This document shows, piece after piece, positions 23,740-59,721 of a stretch of 64,000 nucleotides of DNA. Location of the stretch: the NCBI GenBank assembly GCA_002255585.1, contig NCBJ01000001.1:49987-113986 (forward strand). The letters are read 5' to 3'. Under the pieces are notes generated by a model. The model ran no database searches. It was not told where the DNA came from and saw only the letters and a list, made by a program, of their open reading frames with translations. Every line of letters starts with the position of its first letter. Position 1 is the stretch's first letter. The position numbers and the translations under genes are program-made. Source of the DNA: Parcubacteria group bacterium 21-54-25 (GTDB lineage: Bacteria; Patescibacteriota; Minisyncoccia; Phycocordibacterales; Phycocordibacteraceae).

Positions 23740-24517
23740 GTGGGGACGTGTTTACGGCAATAGAAAGACCCACATAAAGAGAGCGGATAGGCCGCAGGCC
23801 TCAGCATGCAAATGCAACCGCTCCTTGGCGGTTTTTTCTTTTTTGCACGGGGAACACGAGACCTTTGACAACTGAATACGTATAGGTAATCAAAGTGCAA
23901 ACTGCCAAGCAGTATGCAAATAATGCTTGGCATTCAACGAGAAAATCGTTTTGTGGTGTATAGGTCTCCACGCAGGAGACAGTAAGGGTGCACGGTGGAT
24001 GCCTTGGCTTGCGTAGGCGATGAAGGACGTGATTAGCCGGCGATACGCTTCGGGGAGGTGGCTTTTAACCTTCGATCCGGAGATGTCCGAATGGGGAAAC
24101 CCTCCCGCCATGCGCGGGAACCATACGAGTAACGTCGTATGGAGCGCACCTGGGGAAGTGAAACATCTCAGTACCCAGAGGAAAAGAAAGCAATAGTGAA
24201 CCGTTTTTTATCGGCCCGACTAGTCTGGCTGATAAAAAACGGTTCCCGCGATTCCCTAAGTAGCGGCGAGCGAAACGGGATAAGCCCAAACCCACATGTT
24301 CGCATGTGGGGGTTGTAAGGCAGGAACGCAGTACTTGTACTGGAAGAGTTATCAATCATACTTATAGAAGAAACTGCTGGAAAGCAGTGCCCAAGACGGT
24401 AATAGCCCCGTATTTGAAATGGGTATGACTCTTTCGTTCCTGTTCTTGAGTAGTTCGAGACACGAATAGCTCGAATGAATCTACCAGAACTAACTGGTAA
24501 GGCTACATACTACGCAA

Positions 24518-24563
<46 letters not shown>

Positions 24564-25260
24564 GATGAGGGGAGTGAAATAGAACTGAAACCGTGTACCT
24601 ACAAAGGGTCGGAGCCCATGATTCTTTTGAGTCAGGGTGACGGCGTGCCTATTGAAGAATGAGCCTGCGAGTGTGTGTCTGTTGCATAGCTAAGCCCGTA
24701 ATGGGGTGGAGCTTCAGGGAAACCGAGTGTGAATAGCGCGTCGGTAGCAGACATACGACCCGAAGCCAGATGAGCTTGCCATGAGCAGGGTGAAGTGTGT
24801 CGAAAGACACATGGAGGCCCGAACCCGTTGGTCGTACAACGCCTTGGGATGACTTGTGGTAAGGAGTGAAAAGCTAATCGAATCTGGTAATAGCTGGTTC
24901 TCTCCGAAACAGCTTTTGGGTTGGCGTCGCGTGATCCTTCTGGGGGTAGAGCACTGGAAGGGATGAACAGGGAGAAATCTCGTCATTCCTATCAACCTCC
25001 GAATACCAGAAGTTACAGCGCGGCAGTTAGAAGGCGGGGGCGAAGCTCCGTCGTTCGAAAGGGGAAGAGCCCAGATCGCCAGTTAAGGCCCCAAAATCGA
25101 CGCTCAGTACAAGGTGAGGAAGTAAGAATCCTGAGACAATGAGGATGTTGGCTTAGAAGCAGCCACCATTTAAAGAAAGCGTAACAGCTCACTCATCGAG
25201 GGTTCTTGCGCCGTAAATAATCGGGGTTAAGCGTCGTGCCGAAACTGCGGGTTTGCACAC

Positions 25261-25437
25261 TTCACAGGGGAGGAAACTTCCTAAATGTTCTTCGGGGTGG
25301 CGTTCTTCTACGCGCGGACAAAATCCGCTGCGAGGAGGCCAGAGGTATAGCCCTCACCACCCCGACCACTTTCTTTACGAAAGTGGTCAAGAATTATTGA
25401 GACGAATCTAATCATAATGATTCGCCTCTCCTGTGAA
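25261..25437 (+). other. Intervening-sequence-like expansion in 23S helix 45
   Basis: A 177-nt insertion closed by the long-range stem TTCACAGGGGAGG...CCTCTCCTGTGAA. E. coli has a short helix at this point (around position 1170, a classic IVS site). Confidence 0.5.
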
Positions 25438-26178
25438 GTGTGCAAGCGGTAGGAGAGCGTTCTGTTCCGCTATGAAGGGAAAGGGGTGACCCGTCCTGGA
25501 GCGTACAGAAGTGAGAATGCAGGCACAAGTAACCACAATGCAGGTGAGAACCCTGCACATCGAAAGACTAAGGTTTCCCGGGCCATGACAATCATCCCGG
25601 GGTTAGTCGGACCTAAGGGGATGGCGAAAGCCGCACCCGATGGACACACGGTCAATATTCCGTGACCGCCGCACATGCGAGTGGGGTGACGGACTGCAGT
25701 ACTGACGGCCAGTTATTGGATTCTGGTTGGTTTCGTAAGGGGGCGCTCTAGGTAAATCCGGAGCGCGCATACCCCAAGCGATGCCGCGACTTTCTTCTTC
25801 GGAGGGAGGAAGCGTCAGGAGCGCGGTTCCAAGAAAAACCTCTAAGCTTCAGTGTGCGTGCGACCGTACCGAAAACCGACACAGGTGGTCTGGTCGAGAA
25901 GACTAAGATGAACGAGTGAGAGGTCCTCAAGGAACTCGGCAAACAAGCGGCCGTAACTTCGGGATAAGGCCTGCCCATCGCAAGATGGGCCGCAGCGAAA
26001 GATTTCCTAGCGACTGTTTACCAAAAACACAGCTCCCTGCGAACTCGTAAGAGGAAGTATAGGGGGTGACGCCTGACCAATGCCGGAAGGTCAAGTACGG
26101 GTGGTTACATACTTCGGTGTGTAGCTGGACTGTATAAGCCCCGGTGAATGTCGGCGATAACTATAATCGTCCTAAGGT

Positions 26179-26547
26179 CAGACACACTTTTCAGAAATGA
26201 TAAGCGTGTCTGAGGATTGGGACGATTGTAGGGTAGACAGTAACGTCAGCTGCCTTACTGCACAGCAATGTGCAGATTAATCCACCCATGGCCATATGCT
26301 GGGAAGGGAGTGTCTAGGGCATAATTATTCCTTAGACATGAACGATCAGCAGGAAAGATCGAGAATTGAAGGATAGATTGTGGAATTTACGGATAGAGAA
26401 GGGCTTCAGAAGGAAGATTGCGTACATTAATAGAGCGCATGAATCGCAAGAACCCATCACAATTCTTGAAATCCTCAGAGACTACACGCCATGCCCCCGT
26501 ACACGATGCGGGGTGAAGATATAGTCCAAAGGTTTAAAGGAACCTAG
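26179..26547 (+). mobile_element. Group I intron 1 in 23S rRNA (about 369 nt, no ORF), inserted at CCUAAGGU|AGCGAAAUUCC (around E. coli position 1917)
   Basis: The exon junction restores the universally conserved sequence. The P7 core is CAGAGACTACACG ... AAGATATAGTCC (compare Tetrahymena CAGACUAAAUG ... AAGAUAUAGUC). The 5' exon ends in U and the intron ends in G. Confidence 0.7.
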
Positions 26548-26998
26548 AGCGAAATTCCTTGTCGGGTAAATTCCGACGTGCACGAATGGCGTAACGACTG
26601 GGAAACTGTCTCGAGGACTCGCTCGGTGAAAATGCAATACCGGTGAAGATGCCGGTTACCTGTAGTTAGACGAAAAGACCCCAGGAGCTTTACTGCAGCT
26701 TCGTATTGGGGCTACGTGATACGTGCGTAGCATAGGTGGGAGACTTTGAAGCGTGCCTTTTGGGGTACGTGGAGTCGCCAGTGAAATACCACTCTCGTAT
26801 TGTGTAGTTCCTAACCGTCGGGTGGAACCCCGTCGGGACCGTGCGTGGCAGGCAGTTTTAGTGGGGCGCTATCCTCGAAAGCAGCGCCCATCCGACTAAA
26901 TCCAAAAACAGGAAAATATAAAAAAGGGGGACTATGTGAAGTAATTCACATAAGCAATCTGGCTAAATGCTGGAACATCCGAGAATCTTCAAGTACTC

Positions 26999-27023
26999 AT
27001 TTAGGACACGCCGTGTCCTAAAT
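26999..27023. repeat. Palindrome family 2, copy A (ATTTAGGACACGCCGTGTCCTAAAT), inside intron 2
   Basis: 25-nt perfect inverted repeat. The centre CGCCG is inverted relative to copies B and C. Confidence 0.8.
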
Positions 27024-27178
27024 AGTGAAAATCTTTGAAGTGCGGACAATCAGCAGGGAAGACTCGCAAGAGAACCCTCAGAGACTACACGCCAGACTCC
27101 GCGCATAGCGGATGAAGATATAGTCCGATCTGCATGGCGACATGCAGGCGCAATTTCCTCCCGTGATTGCGCACGCCC

Positions 27179-27203
27179 ATTTAGGACACGGCGTGTCCTA
27201 AAT
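27179..27203. repeat. Palindrome family 2, copy B (ATTTAGGACACGGCGTGTCCTAAAT), inside intron 2
   Basis: Part of the 31-nt hairpin CCCATTTAGGACACGGCGTGTCCTAAATGGG. Confidence 0.8.
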
Positions 27204-27549
27204 GGGGAACACAAGCCTAAAAAGTAACGGAGGAGCCTATTAAGGTCGGCTAGGCGCGAATGGAAACCGTGCCGATAGTGTAATGGCACAAGCCGGCTTA
27301 ACTGCGAGGGGTACATCCCAAGCAGATGCGAAAGCAGAGCATAGTGAACCGATGGTTCGCCTTAGAAGCGGCCAGAGATTAACGGATAAAAGTTACCCTG
27401 GGGATAACAGGCTAGTACCGCCCAAGCGTCCATAGCGACGGCGGTGTTCGGCACCTCGATGTCGGCTCACCTTAGCGCGGGGCTGAAGCAGGTCCCAAGC
27501 GTTTGGCTGTTCGCCAATTAAAAAGGTACGCGAGCTGGGTTCAAACCGT

Positions 27550-27926
27550 CGAGCACCTGAATCACGCGATTCGGTTGTTCGACCCGTTTGAACCCCGAGG
27601 AAACTGTTATATAGAATCTGCACAAGATCTCATTGCGTATGCGATGAGTAACTTGAGCAGGTTTGCATGTGTGTGGAGACGCACAAAAAAAGACATACTC
27701 ACGGCGGCGCATTGCAGGAATGCAGTGCGAGCAAATCGACTGATATCGGTGAAATCCTGAACGTTGTGTACGTGAAGGACAATACCGAGGGAAGTGCGGT
27801 AACGCATGCCCCTAGAGACTGAATGTCGATCACCCTACCCATCGAAAGATGCCGGGTGGTGTTACAGTCCGATCCCTTCAGTAATGGAGGTAACGTTCTG
27901 CGCGAAAGCGAAGGACAAACTAGATG
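27550..27926 (+). mobile_element. Group I intron 3 in 23S rRNA (about 377 nt), inserted in AACCGU|CGUGAGACAGG (around E. coli 2593-2596)
   Basis: The exon junction restores the conserved GAACGUCGUGAGACAGUU. Divergent P7 pairing is AGAGACTGAATG ... GTTACAGTCC. Only an 85-aa ORF without homing-endonuclease motifs lies inside. Confidence 0.55.
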
Positions 27927-28069
27927 CGTGAGACAGGTTGGTCTCCTATCTACTACAGGCGTTGATTCTTGAGGGGGCTCGTCCCTAGTACGAGAGGACC
28001 GGGATGAACTGACCTCTGGTCTACCTGCTGTCGCGCCAGCGGCATCGCAGGGTAGCTATGTCGGGTTTT

Positions 28070-28100
<31 letters not shown>

Positions 28101-28328
28101 TTGCCCCAAGATAAGGAATCGTTATGAGACTCCTGGAAGATGACCAGGTTGATAGGCTTTAGGTGTACGCACAGCAATGTGTTCAGCCGAGAAGTACTAA
28201 TACGTCCAGTCTCTTGCGTGGAAATCTGTATGACACAATACGATTTCTCGTTGTGTGCTTTTAGTACCTATACGTATACAGTGGGTGGTCAGAAACCGCC
28301 GCGCGCTTGTGCGCGCTGACGGAGAAAT

Positions 28329-28457
28329 GCGCCCACAGTGTTGGTGATTAATCGGAGGGGATATACCCGTTCCCATTCCGAATACGGCAGTCAAGCCCTC
28401 TTGAACCGATGGTACTCCGCAAGGGGGAGAGTAGGTAGTCGCCAACACTGTGGGCGC
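28329..28457 (+). rRNA. rrf: 5S rRNA
   Basis: CCCGTTCCCATTCCGAATACGGCAGTCAAGCCCTCTTGAACCGATGGTACTC...GGGAGAGTAGGTAGTCGCCAACAC matches the 5S consensus. Helix I pairs GCCCACAGTGTTGGTG with CGCCAACACTGTGGGC. Confidence 0.8.
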
Positions 28458-28650
28458 ATTTCTGTTTACGCTCACGCCCCAGCATTGCGCAAGGGGGAGA
28501 GTAGGTAAGAAAAACACGCCCAAACCATGGGCGCGTTTTTCTTTCTCCCATCGCTCGCTTCACACACGCAAACTTCACCCAGTTTGCGTGTTCTCGCTCG
28601 CTCGGTAGTAGTCGCCAACACTGTGGGCGCATTTCTTATCTACTCCTACC

Positions 28651-41253: not shown

Positions 41254-41399
41254 AGCGGAACCGCTCTTGGGGCGGTTTTAGTTTCTTTGAAAGACTGGGT
41301 TTCGATAAAAAAGATGCACTCGAGTCGCATCTCGGAACCCTCCATAGCAGTAGATAGAACGTAAAAGTTCTAATGTGTTCTATTGCGTTCCGCCTATTC

Positions 41400-42857
<1,458 letters not shown>

Positions 42858-43166: not shown

Positions 43167-43240
43167 GCGAGTGTAGCTCAGGTGGTTAGAGCACTCCCCT
43201 GATAAGGGAGAGGCCCCAGGTTCGAGTCCTGGCACTCGCA
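43167..43240 (+). tRNA. tRNA-Ile (anticodon GAT)
   Basis: Acceptor GCGAGTG/CACTCGC. D-arm GCTCAGGTGGTTAGAGC. Anticodon loop CTGATAA. T-arm CCAGGTTCGAGTCCTGG. CCA is not encoded. Confidence 0.9.
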
Positions 43241-43308
43241 CACTTTCTGTGTTATAGTTTTCTCGGATCAGAAACGCCGCGCACGCGGCATAAAAAGGGA
43301 GACTGCAC

Positions 43309-58678: not shown

Positions 58679-59710
58679 ATGAGGCTCGTCATAGCGACAC
58701 CACTGTATCCGCCCGAGCCGGGCGGACCGGCTACCTATGCAAAAGTTTTGGCGGAGGGGTTACCGGAGCGGGGCATCGAGGCGGCACTTGTGAAGTTTAG
58801 CGACGTGCGGCACCTGCCAAAGCTTGTGCGCCACGTTGCGTACTTCGGGCGAGTACGCCGCGCGCTCAGGGGTGCTGACGCCGTGCTTGTGCTTGATCCT
58901 GTCTCTACAGGGCTTCCCGCGTGTCTTGCCGCGTGGTCGCTCAAAAAGCCGCTTGTGGTGAAGGTGGTAGGTGACTACGCGTGGGAGCAGGGGCGGCAGC
59001 GTTTCGGGGTCACTGCGGGTTTAGATACGTTCGTGAAGACAAAAAAAGTACCGATAGCAGTGCGTTTTTTACGCAAGGTGCAGACTGGCGTCGCACACCG
59101 CGCGCGCGCGGTCATTGTGCCGAGTGCATACCTTAAAGGCATTGTGAAGAATTGGGGAATTCCAGAAGAGAAGATTCACGTTGTGTACAACGGCGTCGAG
59201 TTGACGGAATCACTGCCTACCCCCAAGCGCCCGAAGGGGCTTCTTGTTGTTTCAAGCGGACGCCGGGTGCCCTGGAAAGGGTTTGAGGCGCTTGGGCGTG
59301 TGGTGGCTCGTGAGCCGTCATGGCACCTACACATTGCCTCGGACGTTTCTCCTGGAGAAGCACGTGGGTGGGTGCGCGCGGCGGATGTTTTTGTTCTGAA
59401 CTCCACGTATGAGGGCCTTTCGCACGCACTCATTGAGGCCATGATGTTGGGCACGCCGATTATTGCCACTGCGGTTGGGGGTAATCCGGAACTTATTAAA
59501 GACGGTGTCACAGGGCTTCTTGTCCCACCCGGAGACGACGACGCGCTCCACGCCGCTCTGCAACAGGTCGACCACGACCCAGCCGCCGCGCGCACCCGCG
59601 CGGCGGCTGCCCAGAAAGCCGCCGCGCGCCTTACGCCAGCTGCTATGATTGAAAATACGGCAGCGCTCATACGATCCAATTTACCCAATTTAGGACACGG
59701 CGTGTCCTAA
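58679..59710 (+). CDS. Glycosyltransferase family 1 (GT4)
   Basis: The N-terminal domain as above. C-terminal LNSTYEGLSHALIEAMMLGTPIIATAVGGNPELIKDGVTGLLV. Confidence 0.75.
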   Translation: MRLVIATPLYPPEPGGPATYAKVLAEGLPERGIEAALVKFSDVRHLPKLVRHVAYFGRVRRALRGADAVLVLDPVSTGLPACLAAWSLKKPLVVKVVGDYAWEQGRQRFGVTAGLDTFVKTKKVPIAVRFLRKVQTGVAHRARAVIVPSAYLKGIVKNWGIPEEKIHVVYNGVELTESLPTPKRPKGLLVVSSGRRVPWKGFEALGRVVAREPSWHLHIASDVSPGEARGWVRAADVFVLNSTYEGLSHALIEAMMLGTPIIATAVGGNPELIKDGVTGLLVPPGDDDALHAALQQVDHDPAAARTRAAAAQKAAARLTPAAMIENTAALIRSNLPNLGHGVS

Positions 59711-59711
59711 A
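59687..59711. repeat. Palindrome family 2, copy C (ATTTAGGACACGGCGTGTCCTAAAT), at the 3' end of a glycosyltransferase gene
   Basis: Identical to copy B over 25 nt. It encodes the last residues LGHGVS plus the stop codon of CDS 58679-59710. Confidence 0.8.
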
Positions 59712-59721
59712 TATCTAAAAT

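Follow-up and report, generated by a model that had tools for sequence, protein, structure and literature searches.

The 23S ribosomal RNA (rRNA) gene of Parcubacteria group bacterium 21-54-25 is interrupted in its 3' half by three inserts of 340-377 nucleotides (nt), which raises the question of what these inserts are and, if they are introns, how each would recognize its exons. The gene lies in a window of 64,000 nt (assembly GCA_002255585.1, contig NCBJ01000001.1, positions 49,987 to 113,986 of the forward strand), in which Rfam detects a single bacterial large-subunit rRNA, 4248 nt long against the 2925 positions of the model. The inserts are best explained as bona fide group I introns of a bacterium of the Candidate Phyla Radiation (CPR), located at sites L1931, L2262 and L2593 and referred to here as introns 1, 2 and 3 (Table 1). 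To this explanation as a whole, including splicing and a hairpin between the 5' exon and the intron that is called here the clamp, we assign a probability of about 85%.

The insertion sites are defined by alignment with MAFFT to the annotated 23S sequence of E. coli (L001:669-3573, 2905 nt), to which the exon columns are 69% identical. This reference exceeds the standard numbering by one base, and the site numbers carry a one-base correction anchored on what we take to be the G2250-2253 run of the P-loop and A2602. A preliminary description of the locus, made from the sequence without database searches, had recommended such an alignment, and its boundaries for the three large insertions are reproduced exactly. 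Deletion of each insert regains conserved exon sequence, as had been claimed. The site labels given at that stage, around positions 1917 and 2595, prove only approximate, the actual sites being L1931 and L2593, and the site in the P-loop region is L2262. U is the last base of every 5' exon and G that of every intron (G26547, G27215 and G27926), also in agreement with that description; the boundaries of introns 2 and 3 can slide by 1-2 bases, and the earlier choice is the only one that satisfies both rules. L1931 and L2593 are long-known bacterial insertion sites, occupied in Thermotoga, Simkania and Synechococcus (Haugen et al., 2007, PMC1995217).

Assignment to group I, first made from P7-type core motifs shared by the inserts, is backed by covariance-model matches and by covariation in relatives; the motifs themselves are present as direct repeat families D1, D4 and D5. 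The general Rfam model RF00028, proposed earlier as a check, matches all three introns, but its gathering score of 50 is reached by intron 2 only (E 1.9e-19, at 26910-27147). Intron 3 remains under this score (E 6e-6), its P1 being misplaced by the model, and so does intron 1 (E 0.025), of which the core alone is covered. Relatives were gathered by scanning for 3' junctions. The L1931 pattern (G followed by AGCGAAATTCC...) has at least 120 matches in species-representative genomes, with many non-CPR cases, and the L2262 pattern (G followed by CCTAAANAGTAACGGAGG) at least 120 in metagenomes; introns with both junctions were extracted in 126 cases for L1931, 95 for L2262 and 40 for L2593. Helices P1 to P10 of the window introns were drawn by hand, and pairs were counted on MAFFT alignments of relatives that lack an open reading frame (ORF), with slid partners as the control.

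Every drawn helix of the three introns consists of standard pairs (Table 1). Nine L1931 relatives of intron 1 have 82.7% of their alignment cells paired, against 33-42% with slid partners, and compensatory changes occur in 37 of 65 pairs. The corresponding values are 90.2% against 39-46%, with 39 of 78 pairs compensated, in ten L2262 relatives of intron 2, and 88.2% against 35-42%, with 43 of 67 pairs compensated, in 14 L2593 relatives of intron 3. Support is good for the P3/P7 pseudoknot and for P8 in each of the three introns. Across the relatives the conserved core shows 97.6-98.3% pairing in P3, with compensatory changes in 5-6 of its 6 pairs, and 91-100% in P7. By helix, the L1931 relatives are paired to 98% in P3, 100% in P4 (which is invariant), 91% in P7, 89.5% in P8, 67-78% in P9 and 92.6% in P10, and the L2593 relatives to 97.6% in P3, 100% in P7, 92.9% in P8 and 100% in P9, a value also found for P9 of intron 2; P10 is invariant in the L2593 set. 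P10 comprises 3 base pairs in each window intron. The guide sequence lies 74, 53 and 155 nt inside introns 1, 2 and 3, respectively, and is directly followed by P2, a hairpin capped by a GNRA loop. The U·G pair at the splice site is kept in all ten L2262 relatives and in seven of the nine from L1931, and between L2593 lineages the guide covaries with the exon, GCGUU facing exon AACGU and GCGG facing exon ACCGU. Intron identity is thereby shown by sequence and covariation, and from it we infer splicing.

Table 1. Positions of the 23S rRNA gene, its three introns and their structural elements in the 64,000-nt window
Feature	Positions	Strand	Basis or remarks
23S rRNA gene, host of the three introns	23972-28219	+	Rfam RF02541, 2272 bits, full-length model match
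Intron 1, group I, L1931, 369 nt	26179-26547	+	Alignment boundaries, RF00028 20.2 bits, helices, covariation
Intron 1 helices	P1 26173-26178/26252-26257; P10 26249-26251/26548-26550; P2 26258-26275; P3 26287-26292/26488-26493; P4 26297-26302/26346-26351; P5 26310-26339; P6 26352-26354/26472-26474; P6a 26362-26368/26460-26466; P7 26480-26484/26522-26526; P8 26495-26513; P9 26530-26545		P1 UAAGGU/GCCUUA with U26178·G26252; P2 loop GCAA
5' exon clamp, intron 1	26161-26231	+	Fold stability, covariation in 20 relatives
Pairing in the intron 1 clamp	Exon 26161-26175 with intron 26217-26231; inner part U26178 and 26179-26185 with 26206-26213		Small purine internal loop after the exon-intron helix; U(-1) opposite A26213
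LAGLIDADG_1 gene remnants (two) of intron 1, in and around the P6 extension	26314-26489	+	tblastn with the L070 protein
Intron 2, group I, L2262, 340 nt	26876-27215	+	RF00028 77.4 bits, helices, covariation
Intron 2 helices	P1 26872-26876/26927-26931; P10 26925-26927/27216-27218; P2 26933-26952; P3 26958-26963/27091-27096; P4 26968-26973/27050-27055; P5-P5b 26978-27046; P6 27056-27077; P7 27083-27087/27121-27125; P8 27098-27112; P9 27130-27147; P9.1 27148-27172; P9.2 27176-27206		U26875·G26928 in P1; P2 loop GUAA
Reduced 5' exon clamp, intron 2	26864-26889	+	Seven perfect pairs, relatives
Pairing in the intron 2 clamp	Exon 26864-26870 with intron 26883-26889		GGGCGCU with AGCGCCC; splice site in a 12-nt loop; no inner hairpin
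Palindrome copy 1, tip of P5b, intron 2	26998-27023	+	Repeat scan; relatives have unrelated hairpins there
Palindrome copy 2, P9.2, intron 2	27178-27204	+	Inverted repeat I1, 26 nt, 100% complementary to copy 1
Intron 3, group I, L2593, 377 nt	27550-27926	+	RF00028 32.3 bits, helices, covariation
Intron 3 helices	P1 27546-27551/27702-27707; P10 27701-27703/27927-27929; P2 27708-27729; P3 27735-27740/27825-27830; P4 27746-27750/27784-27788; P5 27755-27779; P6 27789-27811; P7 27817-27821/27865-27869; P8 27831-27858; P9 27875-27890; P9.1 27895-27916		P1 CCGU/CG (slash, splice site) with CGGCGG, U27549·G27704; P2 loop GGAA
5' exon clamp, intron 3	27537-27595	+	Fold stability, covariation in 16 relatives
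Pairing in the intron 3 clamp	Exon 27537-27546 with intron 27586-27595; inner part G27548-U27549 and 27550-27555 with 27576-27583; apical hairpin 27557-27574		C27547 unpaired; splice site within the helix

The enlarged L1 of each intron holds, in addition, a complement to 7-15 exon bases located just upstream of the P1 strand, and it is this pairing that forms the clamp. Introns 1 and 3 contain a further, nested hairpin that starts exactly at U(-1), the last exon base, and pairs it to an A. Their clamps reach minimum free energies (MFE) of -39.8 kcal/mol (z = -9.0) and -35.5 kcal/mol (z = -7.6), respectively, and in neither case is any of 200 shuffled sequences as stable. Intron 2 has a reduced form. 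Among its relatives, exon GGGCGGU of locus L190 pairs with ACCGUCC, and 15 other L2262 introns display the full form with the inner hairpin.

Clamp alignments, made with MAFFT, were controlled with shuffled and with slid partners. The L1931 clamp is paired in 92.0% of the cells in 20 relatives, compared with 72.4% for shuffled (0 of 500) and 36-51% for slid partners, and the U(-1)-A pair is present in all 20; exon-intron covariation is seen in column 7-75 (CG in 11, UA in 9) and column 8-74 (CG in 11, GU in 8). The full L2262 clamp, in 15 sequences, gives 95.6% against 79.9% shuffled and 39-48% slid, with U(-1)-A in 14 of 15. For the L2593 clamp, in 16 relatives, the values are 91.8% against 76.3% shuffled (0 of 500) and 25-54% slid, with U(-1)-A in 13 of 16 and compensatory changes in 13 of 23 pairs, among them column 9-68 (GC in 9, AU in 7) and column 7-70 (CG in 13, UA in 2, AU in 1). 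Exon complements of at least 7 bases occur in 65% of L2593 introns and in 5% of shuffles; the table of exact complements is uninformative for L2262 and for the L1931 exon class AACGGTC, where the clamps use G·U pairs. Exons reading TTCAGAC may face the complement of TTCAAAC, which creates a G·U pair, and the converse, which would create an A·C pair, is never seen. The tolerance of G·U but not of A·C points to a pairing of RNA and not of DNA. The 3' exon has no counterpart, its longest complements being no better than those of shuffles, and the clamp occurs in introns both with and without an endonuclease gene. Together, covariation, the G·U pattern, enrichment and restriction to the 5' exon show a selected RNA pairing in three unrelated intron lineages.

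The possibility that the clamp hairpin is itself the true P1 was rejected: U(-1) faces A in the clamp, and right before P2 a canonical guide is present with the U·G pair, P10 and exon covariation, as in relatives that have no clamp. A clamp census based on MFE folds is not relied on, given that such folds contain chance long-range pairings in non-CPR introns and miss intron 3 of the window. In the MFE folds of three non-CPR L2593 introns (L071, L135 and L101), the 5' strand of P3 supplies a sequence, CCGGCUC, that pairs with exon GAGCUGG (-18 to -12), which may be a chance or alternative pairing.

By established group I chemistry, P1 would arise by pairing of the last 4-6 exon bases with the guide just upstream of the GNRA-looped P2, U·G being at the splice site, and an external guanosine held in P7 would cut there. 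The three bases 5' of the guide would then pair with the 3' exon as P10 while the terminal G of the intron enters the guanosine pocket, and exon ligation would make helix 69/71, the P-loop and the peptidyl-transferase ring continuous again. The clamp would form first, during transcription, holding the exon strand out of its rRNA helix. P1 bases left partly exposed in the small internal loop would offer the guide a toehold for invasion, and the clamp, by remaining paired during both steps, would retain the 5' exon after cleavage for the second. Clamp and P1 overlap by 1-4 pairs only, and the P1 bases are at or beside the small internal loop. An early-forming clamp that holds, presents and tethers the exon is the reading that we prefer, tentatively.

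Two other origins of the inserts themselves have to be considered. They may be splicing-impaired relics, dependent on a protein since the loss of an endonuclease or maturase, or retained in the rRNA. Intron 1 has indeed lost its LAGLIDADG gene, close CPR relatives include L1931 mini-introns devoid of P4-P6, and Everett and co-workers are said to have found in 1999 that the L1931 intron of Simkania stays unspliced in the rRNA. Moreover, the LAGLIDADG protein of the Thermotoga L1931 intron has maturase-like activity (review, PMC3984707). All three introns nevertheless possess complete cores, guides, P10 and a terminal G, their compensatory changes indicate ongoing selection, and a working ribosome would hardly be expected to tolerate an extra 340-377 nt in helix 69/71, the P-loop and the peptidyl-transferase ring, all of which renders this explanation improbable. 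Intervening sequences, which exist in bacterial 23S and are suspected in CPR (PMC11270868), are cut out by RNase III with no joining of the ends, so that the 23S rRNA stays in fragments, and the same gene has an insert of this kind at helix 45 (25250-25447), where a 21-nt stem closes it. As an account of the three inserts this mode of removal is hardly credible: none has an end-to-end stem, group I cores are present and covary, and the sites are classical group I positions instead of the helix 25 and helix 45 positions of intervening sequences.

Rather than helping, the clamp could act as a brake that delays or gates P1, since it buries U(-1) in a U-A pair within a hairpin whose free energy, -35 to -40 kcal/mol, implies far greater stability than that of a P1 of 4-6 base pairs; the U-A pair recurs in nearly all clamps of the three sites. 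The importance of helix 69, the P-loop and the 2581-2590 region for ribosome function is established, and these are the exon stretches covered. While the intron is in place, the brake would also mask these strands (helix 69, P-loop and peptidyl-transferase), which would prevent unspliced precursors from becoming faulty ribosomes. This reading, the main alternative to the helper role and compatible with it, appears less likely than not, because an essential gene present in one copy would pay a price for strong competition with P1 in three of its introns, and because P1 requires only 1-4 clamp pairs to open, at bases whose location by an internal loop resembles presentation more than burial. Homodimeric LAGLIDADG enzymes use pseudo-palindromic targets, and the complement in L1 copies the left half of the homing site; it might accordingly be a by-product at the DNA level, an insertion leftover or inverted endonuclease half-site devoid of any RNA role. 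Common G·U pairs and avoided A·C pairs are unexpected for DNA, the inner hairpin, which is confined to the intron, varies in sequence in every relative and yet always pairs, and the clamp is present irrespective of an endonuclease gene. A DNA by-product is thus very improbable.

Several points weigh against the explanation favored here. Introns 1 and 3 fall short of the Rfam gathering score, and their clamps occupy U(-1) and neighbors needed by P1, with far greater stability, so that they could hinder splicing. The clamp of intron 2 is short and folds weakly on its own (-11.6 kcal/mol, z -1.8). The alignments used for clamp covariation were picked from sequences already seen to have the hairpin, and related sequences may surpass the shuffle control even in the absence of structure, which makes the slid-partner control the more meaningful one. 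No prior description of the pairing was found in full-text literature searches or in the consulted text of the CPR intron papers, a limited search that is not proof of novelty. With these points taken into account, the proposal that CPR-like introns at L1931, L2262 and L2593 share an undescribed clamp module, which would provide two-part exon recognition, exon tethering and possibly masking of the strand until it is spliced, stands at slightly less than even odds.

The claim that none of the introns carries a homing endonuclease gene holds, as no intact LAGLIDADG, GIY-YIG or HNH reading frame is found in any of the three. The longest ORFs of the intron region measure 52-88 amino acids, and the five longest have no Pfam match at E <= 0.01; the small size reported for the largest one is thus borne out, although it measures 88 amino acids, on the minus strand, and not 85. 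Longer relatives encode proteins of the LAGLIDADG_1 (L1931, L2593) or LAGLIDADG_2 (L2262) families. The L2593 intron of Chlamydomonas organelles encodes I-CreI. The best homolog of intron 1 found with nhmmer among the L1931 introns is that of locus L070, whose 183-amino-acid protein, assigned by Pfam to LAGLIDADG_1, was used as a tblastn query. Two remnants of such a gene are retained, so that the description of intron 1 as ORF-less is correct only with respect to an intact gene. The first (26314-26403, frame +1, with an in-frame stop) corresponds to residues 11-45 of the L070 protein, with 46% identity (E 1e-4), and contains FTDREG where the latter has FTDGEG. The second (26427-26489, frame +3) corresponds to residues 163-183, the last 21 codons, with 71% identity (E 2e-7). 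According to nhmmer, the approximately 340 nt that lie between them in the L070 intron (239-580) are absent from intron 1. Because of these two remnants and the missing segment, intron 1 is a deletion derivative of a LAGLIDADG-bearing intron, as expected from the cycle of gain and loss of homing endonuclease genes. No remnant was detected in introns 2 and 3, where no match was better than E 0.08. Autonomous homing would be impossible for any of the three.

The lack of endonuclease genes had been presented as a notable variant, on the premise that CPR rRNA introns usually carry them. Neither the premise nor the conclusion is supported. In a survey of 348 CPR 23S genes, 433 group I introns were counted, of which 222 lack an annotated ORF and 211 have one; ORF-bearing and ORF-less forms at the same site are described, and so are degenerate ORFs that have undergone large deletions (Tsurumaki et al., 2024, PMC11270868). 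Among the introns sampled here, 42 of 124 at L1931, 48 of 92 at L2262 and 31 of 40 at L2593 (34-78%) have no forward-strand ORF of at least 120 amino acids, and two metagenome contigs, L190 and L249, share the pattern of ORF-less introns at all three sites. The introns of the window are therefore further members of a well-populated known kind rather than an unusual variant.

Some L1931 introns of CPR type are smaller still. Seven mini-introns of 187-255 nt (L224, L190, L053, L249, L204, L097 and L155) have no P4-P6 domain and retain the exon clamp, guide, P2, P3, P7, P8 and P9; self-splicing by such introns appears doubtful. The L2593 intron of a Candidatus Paceibacterota genome (DATJJU010000010.1, L097:3786-4298) includes, within the P6 loop, a tRNA-Gln(ttg) called by ARAGORN at L097:4096-4170, which would be a tRNA gene nested in a 23S rRNA intron.

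A perfect palindrome of 26 nt, ATTTAGGACACGSCGTGTCCTAAAT, is present in three copies in the window, where none is expected. Two copies belong to intron 2 (Table 1); as these two are reverse complements, pairing between the apical loop of one (GCC) and that of the other (GGC) would be feasible. The third (59687-59712) separates two ORFs, and the stop codon of ORF 58679-59710 falls within it. The intron 2 palindrome is absent from all 271 fetched loci. Inside that ORF, and in the opposite orientation, ARAGORN calls an 88-nt tRNA-Arg(tct) (59559-59646, minus strand), which may be false, being below the Rfam reporting threshold.

Sequences resembling the L1931 5' junction also occur in 29 viral contigs of IMG/VR (L003-L031), in which the helix 69 sequence of 23S rRNA, AACTATAANNGTCCTAAGGT, is followed by recurring non-rRNA sequence, mostly TCTATTACATTTCGTTAG... 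or TATTAAACTTCGTTAGTG.... These 29 matches were rejected as relatives of the introns, as each consists of a 23S-like half-site followed by non-rRNA sequence. No 3' exon is found within 3.5 kilobases in contigs that extend so far, and none of the three 3'-junction patterns matches a viral contig. The viral copies of helix 69 could be phage attachment sites or copies of an endonuclease target.

The remaining rRNA genes of the window complete the picture of the host. The nearest 23S exons among the fetched named records are those of Candidatus Nomurabacteria (81.6%) and Candidatus Paceibacterota (77.7%), and this closeness to named Patescibacteria places the organism, by its rRNA, with the Parcubacteria-type CPR. 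A 5S gene (Rfam, 28340-28447) follows the 23S gene and is enclosed in a 28-nt stem (28323-28350 with 28436-28463). Pieces of its 3' end appear, by eye, to be repeated at about 28494-28511 and 28611-28637 (region 28494-28637), some 100 nt apart. The 16S gene (41399-42857) is unlinked to this pair, lying about 13 kilobases downstream on the same strand and followed by a tRNA-Ile(gat) (43167-43241). It is free of large insertions, measuring 1459 nt where the model has 1533 positions. Two more insertions of 52-54 nt are found in domain I of the 23S gene, at 24194-24245 and 24297-24350; the first forms a hairpin (24198-24245) with 24-nt arms that are 92% complementary. The insert in the helix 45 region comprises about 176 nt, closed by the pairing of 25253-25273 with 25425-25445, and looks, in position and shape, like a classical intervening sequence processed by RNase III.

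The three introns add entries to a catalogue that already contains hundreds of CPR rRNA introns. Introns 1 and 3 illustrate that the general Rfam model overlooks real CPR introns in which the guide is far from the splice site, and surveys based on its threshold therefore undercount them. The one feature that deserves follow-up is the conserved exon clamp, which covaries, recurs in three unrelated lineages and is open to simple in vitro splicing tests. Should it aid in holding or presenting the exon, the clamp would account for the tolerance of many introns in those parts of the rRNA that are most structured and essential, in organisms reported to have about half the usual ribosome biogenesis factors (PMC12641178).

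The CPR survey (PMC11270868) concerns the same host group, gene and 3' half, names sites 1931 and 2593, and includes forms with and without ORFs as well as degenerate ORFs similar to that of intron 1. By contrast, it sorts introns by Rfam matches and ORFs, and its consulted text contains no secondary-structure analysis and mentions no exon-pairing hairpin; that text gives no positions for 23IS9-11, leaving unstated whether L2262 is among them. The introns of Thermotoga, Simkania and Synechococcus occupy the same sites, L1931 and L2593, and carry single-motif LAGLIDADG genes in their full-length forms (PMC1995217). Intron 1 is homologous to L1931 introns of many phyla. The fetched non-CPR L1931 introns nevertheless have a short L1, with the guide CCUUAG at +10 to +20 and no clamp, whereas in the window introns the guide is far inside the intron and no ORF is present.

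The nearest analogues of the clamp lie outside this group. In engineered trans-splicing ribozymes, extended guides also add a substrate pairing beside P1, with an internal loop in between, for better binding, but they are engineered and pair 3' of the splice site, on the P1-extension side (PMC3895272; PMC6155759). The clamp instead engages 5' exon bases upstream of P1 and precedes the guide in the intron, which results in a pseudoknot-like topology; if the proposed role is true, it would supply a naturally occurring design on which the extended guides of engineered ribozymes could be based. In group II introns, exon-binding sites (EBS) 1 and 2 and their intron-binding sites (IBS), as EBS1/IBS1 and EBS2/IBS2, let two intron segments jointly pair with a contiguous run of about 12-15 bases that ends the 5' exon, and the clamp, on the same condition, would give group I introns a comparable two-part exon recognition. 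Group II introns are another ribozyme class, and the likeness is one of analogy only. Finally, Woodson and Cech are said to have described P(-1), an alternative hairpin of Tetrahymena pre-rRNA in which the 5' exon likewise competes with P1. That hairpin, however, pairs exon with exon, whereas the partner of the clamp is the intron, which covaries with the exon.

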